The notes below the pieces were generated by a model. It was not told where the DNA came from. It did not search any database and was given only the letters and a program-made list of their open reading frames with translations. DNA of 64,000 bases from an uncultured Candidatus Saccharibacteria bacterium (GTDB taxonomy: Bacteria > Patescibacteriota > CALEFQ01 > G965231055): assembly GCA_965231055.1 (NCBI GenBank), contig OZ246411.1, positions 665,875-729,874 on the forward strand, written 5' to 3'. Shown here piece by piece: positions 21,363-51,908 of this stretch (within the stretch, counting starts at the first letter, position 1; each line of letters opens with the position of its first letter). The position numbers and the translations under genes were made by a program.

Positions 21363-24317
21363 TTATGCGACATTATCTTTGGAGTTTTTTCTATTTTTAG
21401 CAAGAACTCTCCGTAGCACTACAAATACTATCACTAAAATCAACCAGAACCACCATTTAGTGAAAAGGTTTTTCATAATTTTTCCAAATGCTCCAGCTGT
21501 TGCTCTTAGATCAAAGCCATCATTGTCAGTATTAGCATCGTCTTTTACAGACTCATCGCTATTGGATTTTGCGATTTGTTCTAATTTGCTAGAAGTAGAT
21601 TCGCCTGCAACAATTCCTTCTGACTCGGTTGAGATTGAAGAGGTTGAGCCCTGAGTTGCTGCTGAAGCAGTGCTTGAACTCGTGCTAGCAGAAGTCGTAT
21701 CTGAATCATCTGAGGAAGATGACACCATCTCTTCTTTATTTGTAATAACTACCAATTCTTCTGCGAGAGGTGCGGATGCGTGACCATTTTTATCAAATGC
21801 CATCACAGCATAATAAAAAGTTTCACCATAATCATTGCCCTTTAGAGCATCTATGTATGTATATTTTGTATTTGCTTCAACATCCATAGCGCCAACATTT
21901 GTTTCATTATCCACTGCGAAGCTCTTGCTTTTTGATTTGTAAATCTTGACACTCTTTGTTTCTTCATCATTGGCAGTTTTGAAAACTATGTCATATCTAG
22001 CATCAGATTTCTGTATTTTTTCTATGCTAACTGGTTTGAGAGGATTGGTATTGTCAAATTCAGTTGTAACAACATCAGACTCCACAACATCAGATCCAGC
22101 AATTGCTTTGACCTGAAAATTGTATACACCATCTTGCGTAAGAACATCCTTGGTAACAGTACAATTATCAGTATTTCCGCCATTAGCCAATAGGACATCT
22201 TCTCCGAATTTCACAAAACTAGAATCTGAAGGTGATTTTTTGTAGCAAGAAATAGCAACTTCTCTACCCTGAGTATCCAATGCCACAAAATTTAAATCAA
22301 ATTCACTATCTATTAGCTCTTGTGGTTCTGCCAATCTGATTACTAAGGAAGATGAAGCCGAAGCAACACCTCCAAAAGCCAAAACTCCAAAGCCTACTGC
22401 AACGACTGCGAGAAGTTTTCTTGAGTCTATTTTTTTCTTAGGCATAATGGCAAAGAGCAATGCAAATGCCATTGAAATAACTGAAATCATAACAAATATA
22501 ATTCTATAGTCAGCTCCGGTCACGGGTAATGTTTCAGGGGTAGTGGCTCCGAGAACTTTCCCCGGAATAATATTGGTAATAGTATTTTCTGAAACAGCGA
22601 CTGGTACGCTATCATCATTCTCAACTTGCGCTAATATATTGACTTCGGTACCTACGAAATTTGTATCCACATATCCAGTAGCCTGCGCCAATGCCAAGAT
22701 TTCTCCAGGTTCTTGATTGTTCATGCCCCTAGCAAAAGCTACGTCCTTATAAATACCATCAGATATATCCGATGCGACATCTCCTATATATGAAAGTGTT
22801 ATAACTTCATCTTTTGCCATAGATCCTATCGTCCAATCTCCAGGCGAAGCATAAGTTGGTTCCAAAACCACTCCCAAGTCTTTGAGACTTCCTCTTTGGT
22901 TTGAAACTGCATTGAAACTGCCGGCTCTGTATTTTATTCCTTCTGGGAGAAGATCTGTCACCACGGCATTGTCCAATGAATTTCCGATCAAGCTTATATT
23001 GATAGAATATTTGATATCGCTTCCAGCGTCCAAAAATGCACTACCTGCATCATTGGATTTTGAAATATACAATACTGGAGCATCCTGCTCTGTTTCAATT
23101 TTGGTGTTTGTAAAAACACATCTGATCACTTCTTCTGCCCCGAGACTTACAAATTCTTGATTTGGATCAGGAAGTGCCGCCATGTTCACAGAATATTCAT
23201 CTGAAATATTTGGCATTTGTTGTTCGTCTTGTTCACAAGTCACAGATGTCTCATAACCTGGATAAGCCTCTTCTTCTATCACGTATCTTCCTACCGGCAA
23301 ATCTGCAATATATGGATTGTCTATTTCAGAAAGCTGAAAATCCACAGAGGTTTGATCTAACCTAGAAACAGAAAAATCAAATTTAGTTGGATCATTCTCT
23401 ATATTTGGCACATCTTTTTCTACGATTAGAGTACCGTAAGCTTGTGCTGAGATAGTTTGTCTATTCACTACATCAACATCCACAGACTTTCCTTCCCCTA
23501 CTGTAATTTGATATCCTGGTAATCCAGAATCATCATCTCGAGAAATACTATAAAGTTCATATCCACTAGGAATATTTGTTTCAGAAATTGTATATGTACC
23601 TGCTGATCTTATATATTCATGGGAACCGCCATCTGTGAGACTTGCCATATCTCCATCCAAATCTATACTAAAACTTTGAGCTACATCATAGATATCTTCA
23701 CCATTTGGACCTACCACATCTTTATGAACCGTTATGCTTGCTGGGTTTTCAATGTAAGGATCTGGACTAACTGGTATATCTCTACCACCAACGTCATTTA
23801 ATGAGATTTTAATTCTTGCCCCTGGCCAATCAGCGGCATCGTCACCTAAAAGACTATTCCAATAAATCGTAGCTGTGGTTTTTTTAGGGATAAAGGATAG
23901 ATTGTATTCTAAGCAAGTATCGGCACCACAATCAACTTCGCCAATTAAGCTCAATATCACATTATCAGCACCATCATCTGAAAAAATCAAAGCATCTCTA
24001 TTAAAATTAAGGATACCGACGGGGTCATTGCCAAATAATTTATAGCTATGTTTAATTTCTATCGAATGAGCTTCGTCAACTGTTAAATTTTCTATTTCTA
24101 GTCTGGTTGGAATATTTTGTCCTTCCTGGTAATGTTTTATATCTCCAGGTGTCCATGTCCCATCTGTTTCCATTGCCTCAAGAGAATACTTATAAACTTT
24201 CGCATTCACACCCGCCACATTATAAAAACCTGGATTCATTAAACTCAAAAACAACGCAAATAGCGCCATTGTAAGAAACGCTACTTTTACGTTTTTTCTA
24301 ATTCTTGCTTGGCTCAT
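21363..24317 (-). CDS. Composite surface protein: LPXTG-type adhesin with Cna-B/pilin-like domains, fused in frame to a second secreted module ending in the KWWFWLIL anchor
   Basis: N-terminal signal peptide. Cna-B-like motifs (GTYTISETNIPSGYEL, VGRYVIEEEAYPGYETS). LPVTG followed by a hydrophobic stretch and KKK at aa ~606-630. Then a signal-peptide-like segment (MPKKKIDSRKLLAVVAVGFGVLAFGGVASASS), FN3/Ig-like domains, a Ser/Thr-rich region, and the C-terminus LFTKWWFWLILVIVFVVLRRVLAKNRK. Confidence 0.6.
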   Translation of the reverse strand: MSQARIRKNVKVAFLTMALFALFLSLMNPGFYNVAGVNAKVYKYSLEAMETDGTWTPGDIKHYQEGQNIPTRLEIENLTVDEAHSIEIKHSYKLFGNDPVGILNFNRDALIFSDDGADNVILSLIGEVDCGADTCLEYNLSFIPKKTTATIYWNSLLGDDAADWPGARIKISLNDVGGRDIPVSPDPYIENPASITVHKDVVGPNGEDIYDVAQSFSIDLDGDMASLTDGGSHEYIRSAGTYTISETNIPSGYELYSISRDDDSGLPGYQITVGEGKSVDVDVVNRQTISAQAYGTLIVEKDVPNIENDPTKFDFSVSRLDQTSVDFQLSEIDNPYIADLPVGRYVIEEEAYPGYETSVTCEQDEQQMPNISDEYSVNMAALPDPNQEFVSLGAEEVIRCVFTNTKIETEQDAPVLYISKSNDAGSAFLDAGSDIKYSINISLIGNSLDNAVVTDLLPEGIKYRAGSFNAVSNQRGSLKDLGVVLEPTYASPGDWTIGSMAKDEVITLSYIGDVASDISDGIYKDVAFARGMNNQEPGEILALAQATGYVDTNFVGTEVNILAQVENDDSVPVAVSENTITNIIPGKVLGATTPETLPVTGADYRIIFVMISVISMAFALLFAIMPKKKIDSRKLLAVVAVGFGVLAFGGVASASSSLVIRLAEPQELIDSEFDLNFVALDTQGREVAISCYKKSPSDSSFVKFGEDVLLANGGNTDNCTVTKDVLTQDGVYNFQVKAIAGSDVVESDVVTTEFDNTNPLKPVSIEKIQKSDARYDIVFKTANDEETKSVKIYKSKSKSFAVDNETNVGAMDVEANTKYTYIDALKGNDYGETFYYAVMAFDKNGHASAPLAEELVVITNKEEMVSSSSDDSDTTSASTSSSTASAATQGSTSSISTESEGIVAGESTSSKLEQIAKSNSDESVKDDANTDNDGFDLRATAGAFGKIMKNLFTKWWFWLILVIVFVVLRRVLAKNRKNSKDNVA
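22515..22529 (-). other. Internal LPVTG sortase-recognition motif inside ORF 21363-24317
   Basis: ACA TTA CCC GTG ACC GGA on the minus strand encodes TLPVTG, followed by the hydrophobic IIFVMISVISMAFALLFAI and then MPKKK. The in-frame ATG is at 22445-22443. Confidence 0.6.
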
Positions 24318-24509: not shown

Positions 24510-24914
24510 ATGAAAAACTTTAATGCTAAACTCTTATCGGTATTGCTTGGGATTTTTGTTCTTTTGGCAATTGCTATCCCCTGTTTTTACGCCGTAGATA
24601 TTGCTGAGATCAATGCCTTTCTGTATCCATTGGGATGCGAACCGGGTCAGATAATCCCAATTTCAATGGTCATGCTGGGAATCATATCGGGAATAATTTT
24701 TGAAAAGATACTAGGAACGCAGAAACTCTCGGGATTCGTACTTGGTTTTTTCTCAGCTAGCATGGTCGTCACCCTATGCATATCAATCAATAATAACTGC
24801 GAAAAAGCACTGAAATCCATGGTTTTCATTCTGGTGTTTGTGTTCATTTTCTACATTACCGCCCTAATAAACGGGATAATCTCAAAAGAAAGTTCGTCGG
24901 AACACAAAGAATAG
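24510..24914 (+). CDS. Small polytopic membrane protein A (4 TM), unknown function
   Basis: 134 aa, highly hydrophobic. Strong SD GGGAGG 7 nt upstream. Own terminator downstream. Confidence 0.5.
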   Translation: MKNFNAKLLSVLLGIFVLLAIAIPCFYAVDIAEINAFLYPLGCEPGQIIPISMVMLGIISGIIFEKILGTQKLSGFVLGFFSASMVVTLCISINNNCEKALKSMVFILVFVFIFYITALINGIISKESSSEHKE

Positions 24915-24946
24915 AAGCGCATCACGAGAAGATCATTACAAGAAAT

Positions 24947-24980
24947 AGCGACTGGAAAAAAACCGGTCGCTTTTTATTTT
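24947..24980 (+). terminator. Rho-independent terminator after gene A
   Basis: AGCGACTGG-AAAAAAA-CCGGTCGCT followed by TTTTTATTTT. Confidence 0.6.
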
Positions 24981-25067
24981 ATCCTAGCGATTGACAAAAA
25001 AGAGATTTCTGATAGTTTTGCAGCATATCTGCTCATTTAAAAACCTTATCCGTAAAGGAGAAATGTC

Positions 25068-25781
25068 GTGAAAAATTTTATAACTCATTTGTCTCGAGTG
25101 ATTTGTGTTTTGATTCATCTCACGCTTCTGTCACTGGTTGGATTCTTCTATTTCAATAATTTTTATGCAGAAATAGTGGGAATCCTGTTATTCAGCTCGC
25201 TGGTATCTGGAATAATTTTTGGAAAATGGAAAGTTGCCACCTCTAGGGCAGCAATTTACTGCCTTATCATTCCAAATACCCTGTTGATCATTGGATTCAT
25301 CACAGCCCGATTAATCACTATCGAAACATCATTACTGAAAGCACTACCCTGTTTGGTTTTCACAGTCGCGATCACCACAATTTTGAATGTTTTTGGAATT
25401 ATCTGCCAAGAAATCCTAGAAAGAACGGTGCTAAGAGTTCTCAAGGCGTTACTGGTGTTTTGGCAATCGGGAATGATAATGATGTTCACTGAAATCGACG
25501 CCATCTTTTCCGTAATCACGGTCAACATGGTGGCTGCAATGTGCCTGGGAATAATTCTCGGAAATGCCAGAATATCGGAGTATAAAGAATTCGGACACCA
25601 GTTGCATGTATGGTATTACCCAGCAATAGTATTGTCTTCAATGCTATTAATCACCATTTCATGTCATTTATTTGGCATAAAATACCACTTCCACTACGGA
25701 ACAAATTTGGGTGTTCTCAGTTCTTTCATTTCAGGACTAGTGGGTTTGCTAGTATACAAACTCGTATCTCAAAAAACCTGA
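25068..25781 (+). CDS. Polytopic membrane protein B (~7 TM), unknown function
   Basis: 237 aa. GTG start preceded by AAAGGAG. A TTGACA -35-like element lies at 24991. Own terminator. Confidence 0.5.
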   Translation: MKNFITHLSRVICVLIHLTLLSLVGFFYFNNFYAEIVGILLFSSLVSGIIFGKWKVATSRAAIYCLIIPNTLLIIGFITARLITIETSLLKALPCLVFTVAITTILNVFGIICQEILERTVLRVLKALLVFWQSGMIMMFTEIDAIFSVITVNMVAAMCLGIILGNARISEYKEFGHQLHVWYYPAIVLSSMLLITISCHLFGIKYHFHYGTNLGVLSSFISGLVGLLVYKLVSQKT

Positions 25782-25800
25782 TAACAATTTTATCAAAGCA

Positions 25801-25831
25801 AGGTCATGCAAATATGCGTGACCTTTTTTAA
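25801..25831 (+). terminator. Rho-independent terminator after gene B
   Basis: AGGTCA [12-nt loop] TGACCT followed by TTTTTTAATAAT. Confidence 0.5.
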
Positions 25832-25919
25832 TAATCCTAAAAACTAGACATACCAATCTAAATTTGTTAGTTTCTAACCATCTGTTCCTTTTATAACCAA
25901 AAACGAGAGGGGGTGCCAA

Positions 25920-26612
25920 GTGAAATGGACAAAAATCATCGCGCTTGAGAAGAAAATCGTATTCGGAATTCTTTTGGCAGAGATCGCGCTATTATCACTT
26001 TCTGCCTACGCATCGACATACCTGGGGTGGAACTGGTTTGCAAGATTAATGATTTCTGCAATCATCGGTTTCACTGCGGGAATGATTGTGTCAAAAAAGA
26101 CAGACCAAGCAGATGCAACTATCAAGATGTTGATTGCTACGTCAATTATTCAGTTCGCAACCGGAATAATTCTATTATCAATGAAGTTCTGGCTAACAGG
26201 ATTGATGCAAGCTATTCCGGGAACAATAGCCATGGTAGTATCTTTCGTGGTTGGCACTGATCCCCATGAGAAAAAATGGAGATTGATAAGCTTATCGATT
26301 TCAGCAACCACTCCAATACTATTGAAACTACTCCTTGCACATACATACCTCACAATTTTGACACTGGTATTTATCTTCGCCTTGCACGGTATTACATTTT
26401 TAGAAATCTGGCGCAAGCGTAAAGAACCCTCCGAAAGAATCTCGATGTGTTGGTACTTGTTTTGGGCCTTCATGTCGATCATCTCATCAACAACGGCATT
26501 ATCAGAAAGATATGGAAGTGGGATGTTAGACTTAACCACCCTAGCACTAGGAACCGTGATTATGGCTATCACAGTTCAAATTACGAGATCATTGCCTCAA
26601 CAAAAACGCTAA
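25920..26612 (+). CDS. Polytopic membrane protein C (~7 TM), unknown function
   Basis: 230 aa. GTG start with GAGAGGGGGTG SD. Contains a YLGWNW motif in TM2, shared loosely with B and E. Confidence 0.5.
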   Translation: MKWTKIIALEKKIVFGILLAEIALLSLSAYASTYLGWNWFARLMISAIIGFTAGMIVSKKTDQADATIKMLIATSIIQFATGIILLSMKFWLTGLMQAIPGTIAMVVSFVVGTDPHEKKWRLISLSISATTPILLKLLLAHTYLTILTLVFIFALHGITFLEIWRKRKEPSERISMCWYLFWAFMSIISSTTALSERYGSGMLDLTTLALGTVIMAITVQITRSLPQQKR

Positions 26613-26633
26613 GCCACAGCTCTCTCGAAAATA

Positions 26634-26663
26634 AAGGATCCAATTGCGGATCCTTTTCTTTTA
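26634..26663 (+). terminator. Rho-independent terminator after gene C
   Basis: AAGGATCC-AATTGC-GGATCCTT followed by TTCTTTTAT. Confidence 0.6.
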
Positions 26664-26802
26664 TCATAATCACTAATTTCGAAGACGAACCAATAATACT
26701 ATTCTAAACAACCTATCTCAAATATTCACAATTTTTTATCCACTGGACAGAAGTACTGATTAGTAATAGTCTGGATTCAAAGGTGATCTTTTCACACGAA
26801 AA

Positions 26803-26830
26803 CAGCGCGACAAATCGCGGTGTTTTTTTC
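26803..26830 (+). promoter_or_regulatory. Terminator-like hairpin plus U-tract inside the 5' leader of gene D (possible attenuator)
   Basis: CGCGA-CAAA-TCGCG then GTGTTTTTTTC immediately 5' of the SD AAAAGGAGGA and the ATG at 26849. Gene C already has its own terminator at 26634. Confidence 0.3.
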
Positions 26831-26848
26831 AAAAGGAGGAGTTTTGCA

Positions 26849-27568
26849 ATGAGAAGGTATCTGAGTTCGGTGAAAAAATGGGCAAAAGTATTTGCCAAAG
26901 CGGTGGTTAGCCTCTGTTTTGCAGCCACACTTCTGGGTGTTGGGTTTATTTCTACTCACAGCCTCATACCGGAAATGGCATTGCCAATCATATTGTTGGC
27001 ACTTGCTGTTGGGTTTTTGACCGGCGGAAGATGTGAAGATATTACAAACATGGACACTCGAATTCCATGCGTAACCTTCATAGTCTCTATTTGCAGCTAT
27101 GCGGCATTTCAAAAAACCACACCGATGAGCGTCGAAAACGGAATTTCAGGAATATGCATGAGCCTAGTACTGGGGATTACGACAATACTCGGCATATACT
27201 TCAACCGAAAAATCAAACCAATGTTCTGGATATCGGCTATATCAATCATGCTTTTCTGGCAAACCTCGACTTTGCTCTACGCAGTAGCCCCTCTCTGGAT
27301 ACTAGGAATTGATGGAATAATCGCAGCAACTCTCGGTATATTTTTCGGAATACAAATAAACAACTTTAAACCAAAATCTATCAGATTTCGAACCAACCGA
27401 ACCATCACTGTCATTGCTGCATGCATAGCTGTTTTTGCCTCAAACTGGATTATCGGATCAAGATCAGGAAATAGCGATGTAGTTATGTCGCTCATAACAA
27501 CTGCAAGCTCACTTTCCGCAGGGCTTCTCACCTATTTCTCCACACGAAGAAAAAACAATGCTCATTAA
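26849..27568 (+). CDS. Polytopic membrane protein D (~7 TM), unknown function
   Basis: Start set at MRRYLSS: AGGAGG lies 8 nt upstream, and the longer ORF from 26783 lacks an RBS. 240 aa. Confidence 0.5.
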   Translation: MRRYLSSVKKWAKVFAKAVVSLCFAATLLGVGFISTHSLIPEMALPIILLALAVGFLTGGRCEDITNMDTRIPCVTFIVSICSYAAFQKTTPMSVENGISGICMSLVLGITTILGIYFNRKIKPMFWISAISIMLFWQTSTLLYAVAPLWILGIDGIIAATLGIFFGIQINNFKPKSIRFRTNRTITVIAACIAVFASNWIIGSRSGNSDVVMSLITTASSLSAGLLTYFSTRRKNNAH

Positions 27569-27584
27569 CTCAACAAAAACATAC

Positions 27585-27616
27585 ATAGCCCATCTCCCGG
27601 TGGGCTATATTCTTTT
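27585..27616 (+). terminator. Rho-independent terminator after gene D
   Basis: ATAGCCCA-TCTCCCGG-TGGGCTAT followed by ATTCTTTT. Confidence 0.55.
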
Positions 27617-27697
27617 AGTGGACTTTTTTTATGTGTTTTGATAGGCTCAAATTGTTCTTTAATAATTTGTTTTCAACTATTGAAAGGGGGTTTTGCT

Positions 27698-28357
27698 ATG
27701 CAATGGAATTCTATAATATTGATCATCTCTGTGCTCGTGATTATGCTATCTTCTGGCTTCATCGCTAACTACGTAGGCTGGGTGTCCGGACTTATTTCTA
27801 TTTCACTAGCTGCGATAGTGCTAGGAACATGGGCATCACCAAGAAAAGAGGCAAAAGAAGCAGGAGAAATGGAAGCGATAGCTATTGTAATTTTTGGAAC
27901 GATATTTTTGTTCATATTCAATCTCGTAACTGCAGTCATTTTGTGGTCTTGGTCGCTAGTCCTCTTTGGAATAATAAATGCGATTCTGTTCTTAATGTTC
28001 GCGATGCAAGGACTGACCGGAAACGACGAGATTCCGAATCGGAAAAACTTCATCATCGCGCTTGGATTCATTGTCACAGGCATAGTATTCCACGGCGAAA
28101 TCGAGCCAATGCTAATTTCTCATTTTATCCTGACAGTTCTACAAGCAAGAGAAATGATCTGGGAAAAAACAGGTTGCAACAGAATGACTATAGCCATCAC
28201 GTTCGGGGCGATATTTATAGCGAGCCAAATATTCTGCCTATCAAGCAGTGATCCGTATCTTTGGGCAAAGATAAGTATCCCCGAATCAGTCTTGGCAGCT
28301 TTTATCGGAGCAGCTGCTATGATCATTTCAAGTGTGGGATCAGCAGATCTCGCATAA
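27698..28357 (+). CDS. Polytopic membrane protein E (~7 TM), unknown function
   Basis: Start set at MQWNS with AAAGGGGG SD. A TTGATA-17-TAATAAT promoter-like element lies at 27639-27667. 220 aa. Confidence 0.5.
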   Translation: MQWNSIILIISVLVIMLSSGFIANYVGWVSGLISISLAAIVLGTWASPRKEAKEAGEMEAIAIVIFGTIFLFIFNLVTAVILWSWSLVLFGIINAILFLMFAMQGLTGNDEIPNRKNFIIALGFIVTGIVFHGEIEPMLISHFILTVLQAREMIWEKTGCNRMTIAITFGAIFIASQIFCLSSSDPYLWAKISIPESVLAAFIGAAAMIISSVGSADLA

Positions 28358-29227: not shown

Positions 29228-30388
29228 TTATTTTTTTAAACCGAGATTATTGAATGGCTCTTTGGTTTCATTTTTCTTCTCATCTTCATCGTCATCTTTC
29301 TTTTTGGTAAGTAACCAAATTATGAAAGCTACGATCAAAGCTATAATCAACCAGAACCACCATTGCTTCAAAAGCCATTTAAACCAATCACCAAGTTTTT
29401 GCATGAATGATTTGGCTTCAGCTTTTACTTCCGGAGCTTTGTCATCAGAAGTTCCAAGAATAATTCCGGAATTATCTGAATCATTATCATTGGTAGTGAT
29501 TTTGTCATTACTATCTTTGTCTGCGTCTGTTTTTGACGTGTCTTTATCATCATCTCCAGCAACAGTTCCTTTGGCAAGTGTAAATGCAATCATATCACTC
29601 CATTCGCTGTAATTTCCTGCTCTGTCTGCTGATCTTACTTTCGCGAAGTAATCTCCAGCTTCAAGATTTGAAATTACTATACTGTTATTGGCAATTACTT
29701 TTGAATCAAAAGCGTAAGTTTGAAAATTGGTATTTTTTGCAACAACCACATTGTAACCATAAACTCCACTAGATAGATTGCTTGGAGCAATTTGATCATC
29801 TGAGGTGGTCCAATTCAAGTTAACGCTATCTTTGAACTTGCTTGAATTTACAGTTGTGAAAGAAGGAGAATTTGGATTTCTGGTTTCAGTCCAGAATCTA
29901 GCATAAGAACTTTTCTCAACTTGACCTTTCATGTTTTCCACTTCCATTTGAACAACCCAAGATCCATCACCAAGCTGCTTGATTTGTTTTTCTATAATCT
30001 TGTTTGATATCACGGCTGATGTTCCAGAAATAGAAACCTCAAAGTGAGCATAGTTTATTCCTGCTGGTTTGCATTCTGATCCAGCGCTCTGACCGTAATC
30101 ACAATTTCCAGCTGTGTGCCAAACATTGAATCTGGCTACTTTGAGTCCAGCTTCATCAACCACACTTGCGTTTACAGTTACAAATTTCTCACTATGCGTG
30201 AAAAGATCTGAAACACTAGCGTTTCCATTGTAATTGATCTCACCGAGATGAAAATCTTTGATTATAGTAGAAGAAGCGCTAGTTTTGGATGGAATCACGA
30301 ATCCCATAGCCAAAATAGCAATCAAAGCTACTACCAAGATTTTGCCTGTTTTAAGCCAATTTTTCATAATTTTTAACTTATTTAACAA
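29228..30388 (-). CDS. Secreted surface protein with FN3-like domain, acidic stalk and C-terminal KWWFWLII membrane anchor
   Basis: Signal peptide. FN3-like VNLNWTTSDD...AGDYFAKVRSADRAGNYSEWSDMIAFTL. D/K/T/S-rich stalk. C-terminus AEAKSFMQKLGDWFKWLLKQWWFWLIIALIVAFIIWLLTKKKDDDEDEKK, homologous to the C-termini of 19202-21214 and 21363-24317. Confidence 0.6.
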   Translation of the reverse strand: MLNKLKIMKNWLKTGKILVVALIAILAMGFVIPSKTSASSTIIKDFHLGEINYNGNASVSDLFTHSEKFVTVNASVVDEAGLKVARFNVWHTAGNCDYGQSAGSECKPAGINYAHFEVSISGTSAVISNKIIEKQIKQLGDGSWVVQMEVENMKGQVEKSSYARFWTETRNPNSPSFTTVNSSKFKDSVNLNWTTSDDQIAPSNLSSGVYGYNVVVAKNTNFQTYAFDSKVIANNSIVISNLEAGDYFAKVRSADRAGNYSEWSDMIAFTLAKGTVAGDDDKDTSKTDADKDSNDKITTNDNDSDNSGIILGTSDDKAPEVKAEAKSFMQKLGDWFKWLLKQWWFWLIIALIVAFIIWLLTKKKDDDEDEKKNETKEPFNNLGLKK

Positions 30389-30467
30389 ATAAAAAATTAC
30401 TTTTACGCTTTACCCTAATACAAAGTACTAAATTAGTCAAGTTTATTCTTTATGAGATAATATTTTG

Positions 30468-30496
30468 ACTTGACAAAATGCTTTTAAAGTTGTAGT
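30468..30496 (+). promoter_or_regulatory. Candidate sigma70-type promoter (TTGACA-17-TAGTAA with upstream TG) for gene 30647-32563
   Basis: TTGACA at 30468 and TGTAGTAA at 30489-30496. Confidence 0.25.
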
Positions 30497-30646
30497 AAGG
30501 AGTGTCACGCTGTATAAGAATAATAATCAGTTTCAGTCAACGGAACTGTAAAAAACCCCATTTTATGTGTTTTTTCAGCTCTGTTCATTGAAAATTTGCG
30601 TGGAAACAATAACAACAATTTGCCTCAAAGAGGCAAGGAGGATGTC

Positions 30647-32563
30647 ATGGTAAAGCTTAATAACTTTTTTTTCGCTGTATTCACCGTTTGTTTGATTACA
30701 ACCCTTTTCCCCACAATTTCGTGGGCGACAAACTGCGACACACAAATCTCAATAAGTTTCGACCAGTGTCGCACAGGTTCAACAGCCGGCCTAAGTAATT
30801 ATCACGATTGCGGGGTTGGCCACGAAGGACCGGACCAGTGCTATAGGTTTACTATTTCGTCCACAACCACAATCAGATTTCGCGGAAAGGCTGATTTCGA
30901 TGCCGACTGGTCTATCGCAACTGAGTGTGGACCAGACATCGGCGATGTCCGATGCATCGATTTCACACAGGGCGGAAATCCGGACTTCAGCTGCGGAAGT
31001 TTCTCCGTGAATACTTACAGTATTATGGACGAGACAATTACACTGAATGCTGGATCATACAAGATTTGGGTCGACGGATACTATTCGTACTCGGATGGAA
31101 ATTATGCGCTCATGATTACAAACGAAAGCGCAACAAATACTCCAACCCGTACACCGACTCGAACTCCGACGAGAACGCCAACGCGTACTCCAACATCAGT
31201 TCCGCCAACCAATACCGCAACTCGGACACCGACACGGACACCCACAAGTGTACCTGCCACAAGCACGCCATTCCCAACAAACACTTCAGTTCCTCAGACA
31301 CACACACCCGCACCGACAAATACTCAAAGCCCCACAACACCCACACCATCCCCGATTCCAACGTGTTATAACAATGCATTGGAAAACCCGGGGTTTGAAA
31401 TGTGGGACGAGCCAGAACTTCCGCCAATGGAATGGATTCTTAGCAACCCTGAGGATTCATACGCAAGGATGGAGCCAGTCAATTATTATGACGGTGAATA
31501 TTCTTGCAGAATTGCTTGGTGGGATGCCACACATTCCATCTATCTTTCACAAGCTATGTCGATGATTCAGGGAACCGAATTGCATCTGCGGATAAAATAT
31601 CTCGATATGAATCCGCACGCCCACATTCAAATCAAGAATACATTTATCAACTCCGTGGGTGATAGTATCGGTGAATCCTGGAGCGAAGCATCTGCAACAA
31701 ATGCAGATTGGCAAACGCTCGAAATTTTCGTCATGGCTCCGCCGGGAACCGTGGCCTCTATCTTTTCGATCGAAGCCGAAGCAGATGTGCCGGAATATCA
31801 GGGTGAAACTTTCATAATCCTTGTGGACAATGCGGAAATTTGCAGTATATACCAGCACAGCCCGACACCAACACGAACCGCAACGCCCGTACCAACCAAT
31901 ACCGCTATACCGACAAACACTGCAACTCGGACACCGACACGTACACCAACGAGTGCATCCGCTACAAGCACACCGACAAGTACTCCGATTCCTGCAACTC
32001 GAACACCCACTCCGACAAATACACATAATCCTAACCCAACATCCACCCCAACAGTAATTCCTTCAACAAATACCCCGCACCACAATCCAACCTCAACACC
32101 CACTATCCAGCAACCTACGAATACCGCAATACCATACACACCGGAACCAACCCCGACAGCAGAATGCCCAGAGCTCGGAATCAGGATTCAAATGCCTGAT
32201 TTCACATCTCCCGGAGACCCGTTCTTTGTAACAGGTCACATCTGCAACACTGTCGGACACGAGTTTAAAGACATCATGGTGTTTTTTATCCTCGATGTTT
32301 ACGAGGATTACTGGTTTTGGCCAAGTTGGAGTCATTACGGTCTAAACGTAGGCGGAACGATCGACTACATTGTCCAAGATATCAATCAAGGACATGAGGA
32401 AGTTGACGTGATTCCAACCTTTTACTGGCCCGACACTGGTGACTTAGAAGCTCGTGGGTTGTCGATCTGGGGAGCACTTGTTGTTCAAGACGAAGATGGA
32501 GTATCACTCATCCTCGGAGAATTCGACAGACACAGCTTTGGCTTCGGACCCAATCCCAACTAA
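30647..32563 (+). CDS. Secreted multidomain protein: PPC (pre-peptidase C-terminal)-like domain, Thr-Pro linker, CBM4/9-like jelly-roll domain, second Thr-Pro linker, unknown C-terminal domain. Compositionally foreign (GC-rich).
   Basis: Start set at MVKLNNFFF with GGAGG 6 nt upstream. Signal peptide. PPC-like motifs [26 protein letters not shown] and [37 protein letters not shown] linkers. NPGFEMWDE...[12 protein letters not shown] resembles carbohydrate-binding-module family 4/9. GC content is visibly far above the flanking DNA. Confidence 0.6.
31141..31330 (+). repeat. Coding tandem/imperfect repeats encoding the first Thr-Pro-rich linker
   Basis: Iterated ACnCCnACnCGn units (TPTRTP). The segment GCAACTCGGACACCGACACGGACACCCAC recurs at 31918-31950. 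Confidence 0.7.
31861..32110 (+). repeat. Coding repeats encoding the second Thr-Pro-rich linker (internal duplication of linker 1)
   Basis: [15 protein letters not shown] is shared with linker 1, and the nucleotide identity is near-perfect over ~25 nt. Confidence 0.7.
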
Positions 32564-32665
32564 TCTCATCCACGCAAACGCTCTTGGGCCAACTGCTTTT
32601 TCAAAGTATGTTGGCCCTCGTTATTTTGAATGTCTCACTGTGAGATATTCAAAAATACGAGGAAA

Positions 32666-32698
32666 TAAAAAATACTCTGAAATTTACAGAGTATTTTT
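32666..32698. terminator. Strong bidirectional rho-independent terminator
   Basis: Perfect 12-bp stem AAAAATACTCTG/CAGAGTATTTTT with loop AAATTTA, between convergent genes. Confidence 0.7.
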
Positions 32699-32709
32699 TA
32701 AATTAGCGA

Positions 32710-33609: not shown

Positions 33610-34377
33610 TCAATAGCTTTTTAGTGAGCGACATATTGTCTGGTAGTTATTTTTAAATTGAACTCCGTGTAAAACCAGATTAAATAGGTTTTCATACCAA
33701 TTCATAAGAAGAACACCTCGCTCAAAGTCGATTGAACCCTTGCATGATATAAGAAACCCCATAGCTGAGGATGAATCTACGCCGTAAATTTCGTCAAATA
33801 GATTAAAGCACTTTTTGAGATTTGAAGGCGTAACCAAATAGGGGCTCTTGTGCTTACAAGCATAATAAGTAAGTGCATTACCAGGACCATGGAGCAGCTT
33901 ACTTACAAAAATTCTACCTTCTTCATTACTAAGTGACCTGATTAATTGTCTTCTGCATATTGTTCTATTGTCATGAAGTACATACGCGGTCAAGTCAGAA
34001 AAAGAAAACCAATGAGTTGAAGTACTTATTGAATTAATATTAAGATCCCCCTTAATATTAAATCCAAAGGTAAGCGATGGATTATACCTGGGATACCACA
34101 ATGGCGAATTAAGATCTACGAATTCGTCTTCCGTATGAACGACGAGATCTATATCTTGCTCTGTTTTTTTTGACAATATTTCTCGAGATCGTTTTAATGC
34201 AGAATAACAATCATGGCTTACAACACCGCAAGAACTAGACACGACCACGGCAATGTCCATGTCTACAGACGATTCATTATAGAGCCATGAACCATAAACT
34301 TTAGCACTTTGCAAGTATTTAATCTTACGCAATTCTATACCAACATCACGTAGAATATTCTTTTTCGTCTTATCCAT
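33610..34377 (-). CDS. Nucleotidyltransferase-fold protein (Pol-beta-like NTase domain + uncharacterised C-terminal domain)
   Basis: KVYGSWLYNESSVDMDIAVVV contains the GS...DxD motif. IDLVVHTEDEF supplies the third acidic residue. 255 aa, similar in size to KNTase/ANT enzymes but with unknown specificity. Confidence 0.5.
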   Translation of the reverse strand: MDKTKKNILRDVGIELRKIKYLQSAKVYGSWLYNESSVDMDIAVVVSSSCGVVSHDCYSALKRSREILSKKTEQDIDLVVHTEDEFVDLNSPLWYPRYNPSLTFGFNIKGDLNINSISTSTHWFSFSDLTAYVLHDNRTICRRQLIRSLSNEEGRIFVSKLLHGPGNALTYYACKHKSPYLVTPSNLKKCFNLFDEIYGVDSSSAMGFLISCKGSIDFERGVLLMNWYENLFNLVLHGVQFKNNYQTICRSLKSY

Positions 34378-34760: not shown

Positions 34761-34834
34761 TCCGGGATCGTCTAACGGTAGGACAGTGGACTCTGGATCC
34801 ACTAATCTTGGTTCAAATCCAAGTCCCGGAGCCA
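34761..34834 (+). tRNA. tRNA-Gln (anticodon CUG), CCA encoded
   Basis: Manual fold: acceptor TCCGGGA/TCCCGGA, D-arm GTCT-AACGGTA-GGAC, anticodon arm GTGGA-CTCTGGA-TCCAC (CTG), variable TAAT, T-arm CTTGG-TTCAAAT-CCAAG, discriminator G, CCA. Confidence 0.85.
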
Positions 34835-37692: not shown

Positions 37693-37896
37693 TTATCTTA
37701 CTTTTCTTTTGGTAGAAGCCTTTTTGTCTTGATATAGCGTATGAATCCCTTCGTTTCCAAACAACACTCCAATTCCCCACAAGATCAAGAATGCAGGCCA
37801 AATATAAGAAACACCCTCAACCACACCTGCGGTTTCCAAGAATAAAGCAAAACCAGCCAAAATGGCTATTATTGCTGTATAATTTTTTATGCCCAT
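37693..37896 (-). CDS. Small hypothetical membrane protein (2 TM)
   Basis: 67 aa with two hydrophobic helices and a basic C-terminal tail. No recognisable domain. Confidence 0.3.
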   Translation of the reverse strand: MGIKNYTAIIAILAGFALFLETAGVVEGVSYIWPAFLILWGIGVLFGNEGIHTLYQDKKASTKRKVR

Positions 37897-42771: not shown

Positions 42772-42845
42772 GCGGGATTGGTCTAGTGGTAGGACGTAAC
42801 CTTCCCAAGGTTGAGGCGCGAGTTCGATTCTCGTATCCCGCTCCA
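42772..42845 (+). tRNA. tRNA-Gly (anticodon CCC), CCA encoded
   Basis: Manual fold: acceptor GCGGGAT/ATCCCGC, D-arm GTCT-AGTGGTA-GGAC, anticodon arm TAACC-TTCCCAA-GGTTG (CCC), T-arm GCGAG-TTCGATT-CTCGT, discriminator T, CCA. Confidence 0.85.
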
Positions 42846-42892: not shown

Positions 42893-42968
42893 GCCGGCAT
42901 AGCTCAGTTGGTAGAGCAACCCCTTCGTAAGGGGTAGGTCATCAGTTCAAGTCTGATTGCCGGCTCCA
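42893..42968 (+). tRNA. tRNA-Thr (anticodon CGU), CCA encoded
   Basis: Manual fold: acceptor GCCGGCA/TGCCGGC, D-arm GCTC-AGTTGGTA-GAGC, anticodon arm ACCCC-TTCGTAA-GGGGT (CGT), variable AGGTC, T-arm ATCAG-TTCAAGT-CTGAT, discriminator T, CCA. Confidence 0.85.
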
Positions 42969-48428: not shown

Positions 48429-51134
48429 TTATTTATTCTCGATTATTTTTTTATTAAAAACTTCTTCAAATTTTTCAAACAAAGCGCTATTTATACGTCC
48501 TTCATTGAAAAATGGCAAGCCTATTAATTTGAATTGTTTGTTTTGAATTTTTAGATTTACTATGTGTTTTTTTTCAATATTTAATAGTAGTTTTTGCTTC
48601 CACCCCTCTTTTGACTTTTCAAAAGTCTTTTTATCATCCATAAACTGATCACCTTTCGGCTCAATGAATATCTGATATATATTTTCCTTTTTACTCTTTT
48701 TACTAGTTAAGAACATAACAAAATCGGGATAAAAAGGTTCTCCGTTTTCAAAACTATAAATTTTAAAATGGTGCTCATTTCTTATAAGCGCAACATTGTC
48801 GTATTTATTACTGAGTTTTTCCATTGATTTCTCCAAAAAACGCATCAACGCTTCTTCCTCGCTAGTTCCCCAGATTTCATTTTGGGCAAACCAGCTTTTA
48901 TCTGAAAAATTAAAATCGTGCATTTCTTTGGCGCGAGGGCTATCCTGATCTAATTGAAGAATTTTGGCGTTTTCAAACACTTTATTGATCAAAAATGCCT
49001 TGAATTCTGTTGTTCCGTAAAATTCTCTCTTTTCTTTTCCTAAACTATCCAGTATCTTATCAACAACAAATTTTGTTATGTTGAGTTTATTTATCTGGGT
49101 AAGATTTTGTAATGACTCTGCGGTTGCTTTTACATTTACAGAAACACCACCTAAATATTTTTTACTGGTAATAAATTCATCAATGGATTTAAGATTGGGA
49201 AGATGTTTTATGAGCGTGTTAAACCTACCCGATGGATTATGAGATAAAGCACTTCGTATTATATTGCAATCAAAGTCAGTTAAGCTAAATTCTTTTATTT
49301 GAACTTTGGTGTTTTGACCTACGCCAGTTTTTTTATTGAAAATTTCTGATTCCAAGGATTCATAAGTCGGCAATGTGTAAATATTGGCTTCCATGTCTTT
49401 ATTAAATTGCACGCCTATATCTTTTAACCCGAAAACGTTATCTCCCGTGTTGACGTGGCGAGAATTGAGAAATATATAACCTTTTTTCCACAAACCTGTT
49501 TTTTTGAAATCCTCTTTGATTTCTAATTTTCTTTGCACTGTGTGAGATGGAATTATACCTTCTTTAACCAAAGCACCCTCTAATTCCTGTATGTATCTTG
49601 AATTAGTTACGCTGTGATAATAAAGTTGTTCGAGTATTCTAAGTTCGTTAGAAATATCATCGTTAAATTTTCGCCTATATTTGTCGGCAAAATTCTTTAT
49701 AGTAAATGGGTAATACCTAGCGCCTCTCCCAATAAGTTGGGCCTCCTGCACAGTTGTCTTACCGGGTCTGTTGTTTTTTGCATCTCTACTGTTGTAAAGT
49801 CGCACAATATCAAAAAGATTTAAAACATCCCAACCTTCATTTAGTTTTTCTGTAGCAAATATTGCACGTATTTGATTATTGGAATCTTCCAATGAGTTTA
49901 ACAGTATTTGTTTTTGCTCTAAGTCTTTATCATCATCAACAGTAAGGCACTTATCCGGAGCAAAATCATTTTTTATCTCTCCAACCAAATTAGCCAACGT
50001 AATTTTATTTTGCTTGAAGAAAGAAAGAGCTTTTTTTACAACATTTGATTCACCGGATTCTGCCAACAGTTCCATCCTTAAAATATCTTTTACTTCTAGC
50101 GCAGTAATGAATTTATGAAAATTTTCTTTGAATTGACTAGATACCACTATTTGAGGATCAAAAGTGTTGTTATCCTGTTTCCGTGGACTTGTGACTCGAT
50201 TAGCCTTAAATAGCACTACTGGTTTGAGTGAGATTTTATTCTTCTCAGCTACTTTTAACCTATATTGAGATATTAAAATAGCTACAAGCACCCTATCCAT
50301 TAAAGGGGCATCTACTTGTTTTGTTGAAACTTCCTTTGAAAAACCATCAAGTCTGTATTGCTTTAAATCATAACGATAAATCGCCTTGTCTTTATATTTT
50401 TCCAAAATTTCGGGGTATTCTTGTTCAAGTCTTGCCGTAGCTGTAAACTCTAAAAGCACATTATCTTTTTGATCATTAGCGTTTAAAATTCGCATCACTG
50501 TTTTTTCCCAATTCTGTCTATCTTCAGCTTCAGCCTTACTGAGTTTACCATTAGTTTCTGCGGATAGATTGTGCGCCTCATCTGCTATTAAGACTATTTT
50601 TTTATCTTCGATACCTTCATAAGTGAGTGCGTTTTCTCCTGCAAAATTAAAGCGAGAATGCAAAAGAGCTGTTGTGGAAAAAATAATGTTTATATCGTCT
50701 TCATTTACCCCTTCAAAATTATCAACTTTTTTGATTTTTATTTCCTGTCCGCTAAACATGATTTTGTCGGCAAACAAATATTTTTTAGAACTTGGATCAA
50801 GAAAATTGGCTTTGGTTTTTTGGATAATGTTGCCAAGACGAGTAAAGAAAATGAAATTGCGATAACCTTTTTGGTAAAAATACAAAATATTAGCCGCCAT
50901 GATGAGCGTCTTGCCAGAGCCGGTCGCCATATTGAACATCAGATGAATAGGCTTTTGTTTTTGGTGATATTCTTCACAATAATAATAAAACCTCCCCAAT
51001 GCTTCTTTTTGATATTCACGCACAGAAAAATCTGGATTGAGATTCTTTAAAACATCGGCTTTTTCAGTCGCTTTGTTTTTAAAAACATCAGCACCGGCAA
51101 AGTTTTTGTATGAATTGAATTCATCGTAAAGCAT
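48429..51134 (-). CDS. res: Type III restriction enzyme, Res subunit (SF2 helicase-like + endonuclease)
   Basis: Helicase motif I MATGSGKTLIMA, motif II LIADEAHNL, and motif VI QLIGRGARY, with a C-terminal nuclease region. Start set at the internal Met (MLYDEF); the ORF is open from 51188. Confidence 0.8.
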   Translation of the reverse strand: MLYDEFNSYKNFAGADVFKNKATEKADVLKNLNPDFSVREYQKEALGRFYYYCEEYHQKQKPIHLMFNMATGSGKTLIMAANILYFYQKGYRNFIFFTRLGNIIQKTKANFLDPSSKKYLFADKIMFSGQEIKIKKVDNFEGVNEDDINIIFSTTALLHSRFNFAGENALTYEGIEDKKIVLIADEAHNLSAETNGKLSKAEAEDRQNWEKTVMRILNANDQKDNVLLEFTATARLEQEYPEILEKYKDKAIYRYDLKQYRLDGFSKEVSTKQVDAPLMDRVLVAILISQYRLKVAEKNKISLKPVVLFKANRVTSPRKQDNNTFDPQIVVSSQFKENFHKFITALEVKDILRMELLAESGESNVVKKALSFFKQNKITLANLVGEIKNDFAPDKCLTVDDDKDLEQKQILLNSLEDSNNQIRAIFATEKLNEGWDVLNLFDIVRLYNSRDAKNNRPGKTTVQEAQLIGRGARYYPFTIKNFADKYRRKFNDDISNELRILEQLYYHSVTNSRYIQELEGALVKEGIIPSHTVQRKLEIKEDFKKTGLWKKGYIFLNSRHVNTGDNVFGLKDIGVQFNKDMEANIYTLPTYESLESEIFNKKTGVGQNTKVQIKEFSLTDFDCNIIRSALSHNPSGRFNTLIKHLPNLKSIDEFITSKKYLGGVSVNVKATAESLQNLTQINKLNITKFVVDKILDSLGKEKREFYGTTEFKAFLINKVFENAKILQLDQDSPRAKEMHDFNFSDKSWFAQNEIWGTSEEEALMRFLEKSMEKLSNKYDNVALIRNEHHFKIYSFENGEPFYPDFVMFLTSKKSKKENIYQIFIEPKGDQFMDDKKTFEKSKEGWKQKLLLNIEKKHIVNLKIQNKQFKLIGLPFFNEGRINSALFEKFEEVFNKKIIENK

Positions 51135-51188
51135 AATATTTTTTACTCGCTTATGCAAAAACCATCTTATTATTATCCATAGTGGCAA

Positions 51189-51908
51189 CTACAATGCCCT
51201 CTTATCACGATCTGCATGATTAATACTAATATTTTTAAGCACTTTTGAAATAATGCCCGAAATTTTTGTTACAATTCCATCCTGCATTGTAAAGCAAAAC
51301 GTGGCAACAATTACCGCAAGTACAATAAAGATGTTGGCTTTAGGAAAAAAAACTGCAATAAACAATAAAATAACTCCGGTGGCAAATAAAAAAATTACAA
51401 CTTCGCCAAAAAAGTCCATGACTACAATCTTTTTGTTTTGCTCCAACATACGATCACGATCGTAATCGAGTTTTAACTTTTTATATAGCGGTAATTCTTG
51501 AGATTCTTTTATGTAAGATTGTTCGATCCCCTCAGTAAAAGGTTTTTCAAGATATTTTACAATGAGATCCATTTTTTCTTGCGAGATTTCTCGATATTTT
51601 TGTGCTAACTTTTCTAGCCCCATCTTATCGCTATCCAACACCTCTTTTAACCATATTAAAATTAAAAATACAGTTAAAAATAGTATTATTAAACCCAGTT
51701 TAAAATAAGTAGCATTATAGGTGTTTTCTATAAAGAAGCTTAAGCCTGCAAAACCCAGAATAATAATTGTTATATGCTGATAAAAGGATCGCCTTTGATT
51801 AATATTGGAAATAATCTGATTCAAAAAATCACGACCACTCTGAGAATGCACAGAATTCATCGTTTCATATTCTTTTTTTAGGAAATCTTTGAATTCTAAA
51901 CTATTCAT
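51189..51908 (-). CDS. Hypothetical polytopic membrane protein encoded between mod and res
   Basis: 239 aa with 2 TM + charged coiled-coil-like segment + 2-3 TM. Its start overlaps the mod stop and its stop abuts the res start, so it is translationally coupled inside the R-M operon. Confidence 0.4.
   Translation of the reverse strand: MNSLEFKDFLKKEYETMNSVHSQSGRDFLNQIISNINQRRSFYQHITIIILGFAGLSFFIENTYNATYFKLGLIILFLTVFLILIWLKEVLDSDKMGLEKLAQKYREISQEKMDLIVKYLEKPFTEGIEQSYIKESQELPLYKKLKLDYDRDRMLEQNKKIVVMDFFGEVVIFLFATGVILLFIAVFFPKANIFIVLAVIVATFCFTMQDGIVTKISGIISKVLKNISINHADRDKRAL

Follow-up and report, generated by a model that had tools for sequence, protein, structure and literature searches.

Based on the analysis reported here, the gene at 30647-32563 (+) of the window (the whole stretch of 64 kb that was analysed) is probably a single-gene horizontal acquisition, encoding a predicted secreted three-module protein that would derive from the module pool of higher-GC uncultured lineages. 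The original prediction had described a foreign gene, probably gained by horizontal transfer, whose secreted product would be PPC/CBM-like and contain Thr-Pro linkers, and this reading stands: GC, GC3, codons, tetranucleotides and the Shine-Dalgarno sequence all deviate, and the best relatives, which do not exceed 49% identity and differ in architecture, belong to metagenome-assembled genomes (MAGs) of candidate phyla with a higher GC content. The features of the locus are as follows.

30389-30646, plus strand: upstream spacer, AT-rich (GC 0.31), in which 30434-30461 resembles a promoter
30595-30604, plus strand: left arm of a 10-nt inverted pair, TTTGCGTGGA; the exact pair encloses the Shine-Dalgarno sequence and the gene
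30635-30641, plus strand: Shine-Dalgarno sequence AAGGAGG, atypical for the surroundings
30647-32563, plus strand: coding sequence, 638 aa plus stop, of foreign composition; identical protein on four contigs
30647-30727, plus strand: putative Sec-type signal peptide (aa 1-27), by inspection; K3, hydrophobic core, SWA then TN
30728-31132, plus strand: N domain (aa 28-162), predicted Cys-rich beta-sandwich of a distantly PPC-like family
31133-31360, plus strand: Thr/Pro linker 1 (aa 163-238), containing (TPTR)n
31361-31861, plus strand: M domain (aa 239-405), predicted CBM4/9-like jelly roll with an NPGFE.W start
31862-32158, plus strand: Thr/Pro linker 2 (aa 406-504), with ~130 nt common to linker 1 at ~80% identity
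32159-32560, plus strand: C domain (aa 505-638), uncharacterised Ig-like beta-sandwich with LG.R...P..PGD.F, FFILDVY..YWFWPSW, WPDTG and FG.GP
32569-32578, minus strand: right arm of the 10-nt inverted pair, TCCACGCAAA on the plus strand
~32588-32615, 32616-32662 and 32666-32700 (within 32588-32700), no strand: three strong hairpins between convergent genes

Borders, signals and composition of the gene

The open frame was verified from either TTG 30596 or ATG 30647 to the stop at 32563. The canonical GGAGG motif that had been predicted is present as AAGGAGG, 5 nt upstream of ATG 30647, which sets the start at this codon and the length of the protein at 638 aa; TTG 30596 was discarded as a start because the Shine-Dalgarno sequence precedes the ATG. 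As also anticipated, spurious frames overlap the gene, with ~11 of at least 60 aa in the other frames. The gene is a separate transcription unit, divergent from its neighbor at 29228-30388 (-), since it has a promoter-like spacer and terminator hairpins of its own. The hairpin region (32588-32700) reaches a minimum free energy of -57.7 kcal/mol, with a z of -10.2, and its hairpins are likely bidirectional terminators. The 10-nt inverted pair has just two exact copies in the 64-kb window, and ~0.04 such pairs between the two spacers are expected by chance; it may mark the boundary of a cassette, although it could also be a chance occurrence.

The Shine-Dalgarno sequence is a foreign translation signal when compared with the housekeeping neighbors (RluB, PHP, FtsEX, RF, Nth, and XseAB), which are devoid of such a motif and have A/T-rich leaders. 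Also, AGGAGG is observed 12 times against 20 expected.

Regarding composition, for which the 64-kb window was the reference, the gene deviates most strongly of the 48 long ORFs under comparison. Its GC content of 0.481 against 0.371 ± 0.024 in the other 47 (z 4.5) bears out the predicted elevation above AT-rich surroundings, with sharp steps at both gene ends in 100-nt windows. The GC3 and tetranucleotide statistics, proposed as checks together with the original prediction, deviate as well: GC3 of the whole gene is 0.451 (z 2.9 against the same 47 ORFs), and the 2-kb interval 30501-32500 is the top outlier in tetranucleotide distance (z 5.55). Moreover, the synonymous-codon fit under the host model is the worst of the 48 ORFs (z -4.8). 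When the gene is divided into segments, GC3 is 0.48-0.49 in the three globular parts and 0.34-0.37 in the linkers, compared with 0.33 in the surroundings, and the codon z lies below -4 in all five segments. This means that the GC excess goes beyond what Thr/Pro codons contribute, because it persists in the globular GC3 and in the codon fit of every segment. Thus, the gene departs from the 64-kb reference in bases, codons and oligonucleotides alike, in the manner expected of an acquired gene.

Modules and linkers of the predicted secreted protein

The protein consists of a signal peptide, a PPC-like N domain, a Thr/Pro linker, a CBM4/9-like M domain, a second Thr/Pro linker and the C domain, with no catalytic domain in its 638 aa. 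The predicted signal peptide, a hydrophobic N-terminal leader recognised by eye, has a basic n-region, a hydrophobic h-region and small residues at positions -3 and -1, and agrees with a helix at residues 3-20 in the full-length single-sequence AF2 model, whose overall pLDDT is just 38.7. These features suggest that the protein would be exported by the Sec route. A lipoprotein signal was ruled out, given that the F-T-V ahead of Cys15 does not form a lipobox.

Both Thr-Pro linkers expected from the original prediction were found, and (TPTR)n is present in linker 1. The idea that they are typical of Actinobacteria or Chloroflexi glycoside hydrolases did not hold, the named genomes of the relatives being of CSSED10-310 type and a catalytic domain being absent. 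As for the duplication shared by the linkers, it is real at the DNA level (~130 nt, ~80% identity, including a stretch of 22 nt that matches exactly), but the claim that it is recent fails because the copies have diverged by ~20%. The sole PDB sequence match of the protein, 8zvk_A (AaBgIC), was rejected as an artefact of the (TP)n linker, with 45 bits of bias.

No Pfam match to the 638-aa protein was obtained even at E <= 10, and neither Pfam nor NCBIfam gave a usable match to the protein or to each single domain. The assignment of the N domain therefore comes through its relatives. The domain occurs in 1-5 copies in 42 of the best 150 relatives, and its family has four to six conserved cysteines and an EADFDADW motif. 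The PPC profile (PF04151) matches 3 of 35 N-domain relatives (best 1.1e-5), which places the relation to PPC at a distant, superfamily level; the same profile does not match the N domain of the target at E <= 10. Also, the final ~30 positions of the N-domain profile weakly match chains of collagenase collagen-binding domains (CBDs), at E 0.045-0.1. In common with PPC domains and collagenase CBDs, the N domain would be a beta-sandwich of ~100-130 aa in secreted proteins with a terminal G.Y.I.V.G...G.Y.L motif. However, unlike PPC, its family shows the cysteines and the EADFDADW motif, and it occurs as N-terminal or internal tandem copies rather than behind a peptidase.

A comparable situation is found for the M domain. 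CBM_4_9 (PF02018) matches 2 of 10 M-domain relatives (best 6.4e-7) and does not match the M domain of the target at E <= 10, while the M-domain profile matches the hyaluronate-lyase chain 4d0q_A over 125 positions (E 1.8e-4), which we take to be the CBM70 of Streptococcus pneumoniae hyaluronate lyase. The domain resembles CBM_4_9 in its size of ~165 aa, its N.GFE.W start and its beta-rich prediction, but differs from the contexts of CBM_4_9 and 4d0q_A in having no attached glycoside hydrolase or lyase. Hence, the PPC-like and CBM4/9-like assignments that had been proposed appear right in kind, although they are weak for the target itself.

Relatives, locus context and origin

An exhaustive HMMER search yielded 1502 relatives, with a best identity of 49%, among which the order N-M-C is absent, the combination in the target being unique. 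In word-indexed searches, none of the three domains yielded a homologue, and plasmid and phage collections gave no match. In the 64-kb window, no other ORF matches the N, M, or C profile or has a TP-rich stretch; further copies may lie elsewhere in the genome, the longest contig of which measures 844 kb. A genome scan recovered 61 loci in ~11 MAGs, 5 of these being CSSED10-310, with a locus GC of 0.43-0.62; this taxonomic distribution is a biased sample because the scan used a nine-sequence C-domain subset matched through one exact pattern, YWFWPSW (best identity 45%). The proteins P0016 and P0022 belong to CSSED10-310, a phylum with a GC content of 43-59% (PMC8248873). Relatives are present in CSSED10-310 and other MAGs, yet the best identity is just 47-49%, and among 11 candidate source MAGs there is none whose codon usage fits the gene better than uniform usage.

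With respect to the locus, hallmarks of mobility are absent: no integrase, transposase or flanking tRNA adjoins the gene (the nearest tRNA lies 2.2 kb away), and no direct or long repeats flank it, only the 10-nt inverted pair. Exact-protein look-ups of the gene and its flanks recovered the same context alone. A metagenome scan with the RluB-like flank gave seven loci at 47% identity or less, with no synteny and no close relatives of the host; among these flank-anchored loci, all distant, a variant of the locus devoid of the gene was not found.

Outside this gene, the modules appear to be common just in a few rare candidate phyla of higher GC content, CSSED10-310 being one of them, and for this reason the gene was probably acquired by transfer. 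An alternative, which we regard as improbable, is that the gene is native and owes its odd composition to Thr/Pro-rich sequence together with the selection acting on a gene for a surface protein that is highly expressed or encoded on the lagging strand. For example, its most deviant codon position is GC2 (0.52, z 4.4), as ACN and CCN codons predict, it lies on the plus strand amid mostly minus-strand genes, and mobility genes are absent. Five nearby membrane-protein genes also combine a raised GC3 with a Shine-Dalgarno sequence, making a native subclass conceivable. Nonetheless, the globular domains, of ordinary amino-acid content, keep their high GC3 and poor codon fit, and strand does not explain an 11-point difference in GC. 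A native origin is also at odds with the confinement of the domains and TP linkers to this one ORF of the window, with the clustering of the relatives in unrelated higher-GC lineages, and with the host-type surface proteins at 21363-24317 and 29228-30388, which have host-like codons and a different C-terminal anchor. On the other hand, the change of GC exactly at the gene borders and the metagenomic source of the DNA could be explained by an artefact of assembly or binning, in which DNA from a different organism was merged into the contig. Against this, the protein and both flanking proteins occur together on the same four contigs of different sizes (20-50 kb, two of 50-200 kb and one of 0.2-1 Mb), and no base differs between the window and the Logan contig of SRR10912417 along a shared 21,917 nt in which both junctions lie. 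Such a base-identical second assembly makes a chimera unlikely and largely refutes the artefact; moreover, the foreign piece amounts to an entire gene, flanked at either end by AT-rich spacers of host type, which leaves this explanation very improbable.

A further possibility accepts the transfer but takes the gene to be an inert, decaying passenger of recent arrival, its C-terminal tag having no cognate machinery in the recipient. The single copy, with no further family members in the window, a composition that has not drifted to host values, and a rather divergent C domain (47% identity to its nearest neighbor, compared with a family median of 57%) would fit a passenger of this kind. However, the ORF of 1,917 nt is intact, invariant and near-invariant residues of all three domain families are kept, the C domain is modelled by AF2 at a pLDDT of 95.8, a strong Shine-Dalgarno sequence and terminators are present, and the protein sequence is identical on four contigs, all of which gives inertness little probability.

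Returning to the main reading, one gene would have entered the chromosome of a bacterium with a small genome and a low GC content (37%), probably of the CPR/Patescibacteria type. The product of this gene would be Sec-exported and non-catalytic, with extended Thr/Pro linkers between its three beta-sandwich modules, namely a distantly PPC-like one rich in Cys, a CBM4/9-like jelly roll and a C-terminal Ig-like/CARDB-like sandwich of ~125 aa. Modules and linkers would have been drawn from a shuffled extracellular pool abundant in CSSED10-310 and a few other MAGs, lineages in which the C domain may act as a terminal, single-copy appendage for cell-surface anchoring or sorting. In the recipient, the most probable role of the protein would be binding, either in secreted form or in association with the surface, as an adhesin for glycans or cell surfaces.

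The C-terminal domain family

The original prediction had set aside ~130 aa at the C-terminus as a domain of no known type. It is true that Pfam, NCBIfam, and PDB sequence searches give no family match to the C domain, but the domain is not isolated, since it belongs to a large family with a terminal position. With a length of ~125 aa, it is found as a single copy in at least 107 of the top 150 representatives of clusters built at 50% identity, and in 97 of the 107 proteins it ends three residues or fewer from the C-terminus. A low-complexity linker precedes it, and the passengers ahead comprise 36 Pfam families among 70 proteins, including beta-helix proteins, peptidases, FG-GAP propellers, amidases, cohesins, and CBMs. 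The recovered genome loci hold 98 C-domain proteins, to which two MAGs contribute no fewer than 34 and 29, respectively. Relatives that share the N or M domain have one of three C-terminal ends, namely the C domain, dockerin-like repeats, or a TM helix plus basic tail, and on related proteins the C domain alternates with dockerin-like repeats and PEP-CTERM-like tails.

The AF2 model of the C domain is all-beta, and its closest folds are CARDB, cohesin, and macroglobulin (E 6e-4, TM 0.46-0.60). The domain shares an Ig-like sandwich with CARDB (PF1109 of Pyrococcus furiosus, PDB codes: 2kl6 and 3idu), macroglobulin and cohesin, but at sequence identities of 10-16% and rmsd values of 5-7 Å. A TM of ~0.5 suggests a general beta-sandwich fold in common rather than membership of these families. 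Only 1 of 47 C-domain family members matches Pfam A2M, and weakly. A search of a viral fold library and a literature search for the C-domain motifs gave no result. The conserved neighbors beside C-domain genes in the MAG loci appear by eye to be housekeeping or polysaccharide-synthesis-like genes, not sorting machinery.

The single copy, the terminal position, the diverse passengers and the many paralogous carriers per genome are the behaviour of an anchor or sorting tag, and by this analogy we infer that the C domain could be a surface-anchor or sorting module. A bolder reading, for which we claim rather little likelihood, is that it is an undescribed sorting or anchoring domain specific to CSSED10-310 and allied uncultured lineages, analogous to T9SS CTDs or dockerins, and that the lone copy found here, in a minimal genome resembling those of CPR, was captured from a neighboring bacterium, possibly a host, which would be the physical partner of an episymbiont-type organism.

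Taken alone, the gene would be a textbook example of how one gene for a surface or secreted protein is gained by horizontal transfer. Moreover, it reveals a large C-terminal domain family for which Pfam and NCBIfam have no model, but for which a confident structural model is now to hand. In a candidate phylum that has hardly been studied, this family behaves as a tag for sorting or anchoring would. Surface contacts are essential to small-genome, symbiont-type bacteria. If the recipient is of this type, a foreign adhesin-like gene would hint at the organisms with which it lives and trades DNA.

Finally, the C domain can be compared with known sorting modules. In sequence it stands apart from the curated ones, as none of 47 C-domain sequences matches the sorting domains of Pfam or NCBIfam, TIGR04183/PF18962 included, and its ~125 aa exceed the size of T9SS CTDs (75 positions in the Pfam model and 72 in TIGR04183). 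Nonetheless, like T9SS CTDs (TIGR04183/PF18962), dockerins, and PEP-CTERM, it is a single, terminal domain borne by many unrelated passengers, and, like known sorting modules, it is limited to certain lineages, in which a genome can hold tens of copies.

Composition and expression signals of the probably foreign gene

The features of the window to which the analysis refers are as follows.

Features of the window
30647-32563, + strand: gene of 638 aa (leader; N domain, aa 28-162; linker 1; M domain, aa 239-405; linker 2; C domain, aa 505-638)
30595-30604 and 32569-32578: exact 10-nt inverted pair, TTTGCGTGGA / TCCACGCAAA, flanking the Shine-Dalgarno motif and stop of this gene
32588-32700: three strong hairpins in a row, within the 146 nt that separate two convergent genes
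33610-34377, - strand: 255-aa protein with a weak Pol-beta nucleotidyltransferase match
37693-37896: 67-aa gene with a Shine-Dalgarno site
21363-24317 and 29228-30388, - strand: two large secreted host-type surface proteins
24510-28357, + strand: five tandem genes for small polytopic membrane proteins (134, 237, 230, 239 and 219 aa)
48429-53781, - strand: type III restriction-modification (Res helicase, 239-aa ORF, Mod methylase)
34761-34834, 42772-42845 and 42893-42968, + strand: tRNA-Gln(CTG), tRNA-Gly(CCC) and tRNA-Thr(CGT)
63520-63931, - strand: bacterial class A RNase P RNA (200.6 bits)

The open reading frame ends with the stop at 32563 and could begin at TTG 30596 or at ATG 30647; because AAGGAGG stands at 30635-30641, 5 nt before the ATG, the gene is taken as 30647-32563. 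This agrees with the canonical Shine-Dalgarno (SD) site of the original prediction, and its description of a GC-rich gene in AT-rich surroundings is borne out by GC, GC3, codon fit and tetranucleotide scores. Compared with the 47 other long ORFs of the 64-kb window, the gene has a GC content of 0.481 versus 0.371 ± 0.024 (z 4.5), with a GC2 of 0.52 (z 4.4) and a GC3 of 0.45 (z 2.9). The GC excess goes beyond the Thr/Pro codons, GC3 being 0.48-0.49 in the three globular parts and only 0.34-0.37 in the linkers. When synonymous codon choice is scored as a leave-one-out log-likelihood under a model of the host, the low-GC (~0.37) bacterium whose chromosome carries the gene, the gene has the poorest fit among the 48 ORFs (z -4.8), and all five segments, scored separately, fall below z -4. 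Moreover, 30501-32500 is the top tetranucleotide outlier among 2-kb windows (z 5.55; next unrelated region, z 2.0), and the GC per 100-nt window rises from 0.25-0.36 to 0.41-0.56 where the gene begins and is 0.29 directly past its stop.

For the comparison of leaders, gene starts were called on the public contig. The SD motif is absent from the A/T-rich leaders of the genes for an RluB-like pseudouridine synthase, PHP, FtsX, FtsE, release factor, Nth and XseA/B, and the 64 kb contain 12 instances of AGGAGG, versus 20 expected. The full AAGGAGG is a second foreign signal, independent of composition. The gene also has its own AT-rich 5' spacer with a promoter-like site, and the 146-nt spacer on its 3' side folds with an MFE of -57.7 kcal/mol (z -10.2); with its own SD site, it therefore looks like a self-contained cassette. 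The 10-nt inverted pair, present as two exact copies and no others in the whole window, may mark an inserted cassette or be due to chance, and as ~0.04 chance matches are expected it is taken as a hint only. The gene has no mobility genes beside it, and searches of plasmid and phage collections found no relatives.

Most genes checked at 21363-42392 have A/T-rich leaders without the SD motif, SD sites occurring only at the gene under study, the membrane-protein array, gene 33610-34377 and the 67-aa gene. The leader of 33610-34377, AGGAGGATGTT-ATG, is near-identical to that of the foreign gene, AGGAGGATGTC-ATG, despite a host-like composition.

An assembly artefact is very unlikely: the protein and both flanking proteins lie on the same four contigs, which differ in size (largest 0.2-1 Mb), and a 37.6-kb Logan contig (SRR10912417) shows no difference from the window across 21,917 nt, a stretch that takes in both junctions of the gene.

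Neighboring genes of the host

Exactly one ORF in the window carries an N, M or C module or a TP-rich stretch. The two surface proteins, one of them with a SpaA-like prealbumin fold, have host-like codon usage. Both end in a membrane anchor unlike the C domain, in which '..K.WWFWLI' leads into a hydrophobic helix and then a tail rich in Lys and Arg; this may be a host-specific surface-anchor motif. Two DUF4012 proteins are also encoded by the host, besides ordinary housekeeping genes, its longest contig measures 843,892 bp, and clustering at 90% identity leaves its proteins as singletons, all of which suggests an organism of the CPR/Patescibacteria type. No close relatives were found for a comparison of synteny.

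The five membrane proteins match no Pfam/NCBIfam family. All their genes have SD-like leaders, unlike housekeeping genes, and in the four measured (25068-28357) GC3 is elevated (0.41-0.44) and codon usage is atypical (z ~ -2.8). The array may be another block of foreign origin or a gene class of its own. The restriction-modification region has the lowest GC of the window (0.31-0.34) and is the second tetranucleotide outlier (z ~2).

Modules of the protein and their probable source

Residues 1-27 form, by inspection, a predicted Sec-type leader. Neither the whole protein nor its separate domains match Pfam or NCBIfam, its single PDB sequence match is a (TP)n linker artefact, and word-indexed searches, one per domain, gave no relatives. 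An exhaustive HMMER search over 1.84 billion cluster representatives yielded 1502 relatives at E <= 1e-3 (472 at E <= 1e-10). In a local mapping of the best 150 of these 1502, three modules occur independently of one another: 42 proteins have the N domain (often in 2-5 copies), 5 the M domain and 107 the C domain. The N-M-C order is absent from these 150. In the best match (P0001, 49% identity), for example, two N domains precede dockerin-like repeats.

PPC (PF04151) is matched by 3 of 35 N-domain relatives (best 1.1e-5) and CBM_4_9 by 2 of 10 M-domain relatives (6.4e-7). Also, the N-domain profile weakly matches collagenase collagen-binding domains, and the M-domain profile matches hyaluronate-lyase chain 4d0q_A (1.8e-4). 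The PPC-like and CBM4/9-like labels first proposed are thus right in kind at the superfamily level only, the protein itself failing both family profiles. Over ~130 nt the linkers are ~80% identical, and an exact core of 22 nt uses identical synonymous codons. As first suggested, this is a real internal duplication, not convergence, although the copies are too diverged for it to be recent.

The single pattern YWFWPSW, scanned against GTDB with one genome for each species, gave 61 loci, all in ~11 MAGs, five of them labelled candidate division CSSED10-310, a rare, Gram-negative, anoxic-sediment phylum of 43-59% GC (PMC8248873). The loci have a GC of 0.43-0.62, every one above the host's 0.37, and encode 98 C-domain proteins, of which one MAG accounts for at least 34 and another for at least 29; N domains are found in the same genomes. 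Two relatives (P0016 and P0022) are named at NCBI as CSSED10-310 proteins, and P0002 is the second-best match overall. Mid-GC CSSED10-310 MAGs fit the codon usage of the gene better than the host does, and none of the candidate source genomes fits it better than uniform usage. The nearest C domain has 47% identity, versus a family median nearest-neighbor identity of 57%.

Within these loci (L002-L062), C-domain genes are often adjacent, for example at 4463-4834 and 6733-7086 of L009. Among the related proteins listed as matches, cohesin- and dockerin-like modules and 'IPxTGP-TM-RRK' tails occur; source-type lineages therefore seem to run parallel surface-display systems.

A single-gene horizontal acquisition by a low-GC, small-genome bacterium, as originally predicted, is well supported and highly probable, and is in itself ordinary. 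The source would be a module pool typical of CSSED10-310-like lineages, and the acquired product would be a secreted, non-catalytic, three-module binding protein, for which an adhesin-like function has roughly an even chance.

The C-terminal domain

The C domain is the most informative part of the protein, and its always-terminal, undescribed family is the one element that deserves follow-up. It occurs once per protein, preceded by a Thr/Pro linker, and ends at most 3 residues from the C terminus in 97 of 107 carriers. At least 36 Pfam families precede it among 70 proteins, such passengers including right-handed beta-helix, peptidases M23/S8/M1/M28/S15, FG-GAP, amidase_3, FGE-sulfatase, cohesin and CBM_4_9. 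Pfam/NCBIfam models match none of 47 members except for one weak A2M, and the profile matches no solved structure by sequence.

AlphaFold2 on the 47-sequence alignment gives an all-beta domain (pLDDT 95.8, pTM 0.88). The viral fold library contains no match to this model, and a Foldseek search of the PDB retrieves no more than general Ig-like sandwiches (TM ~0.5), namely the CARDB domain of PF1109, Spo0M, cohesins and macroglobulin domains of C3.

Finally, three alternative C termini occur on proteins with N or M domains: the C domain, dockerin-like repeats and an 'IPxTGP - TM helix - RRK' tail. Given this choice of anchor, its strictly terminal place and its diverse passengers, the C domain behaves like a sorting/anchoring tag, and an anchor role has roughly an even chance; among the alternative endings, the 'IPxTGP - TM helix - RRK' tail resembles PEP-CTERM.
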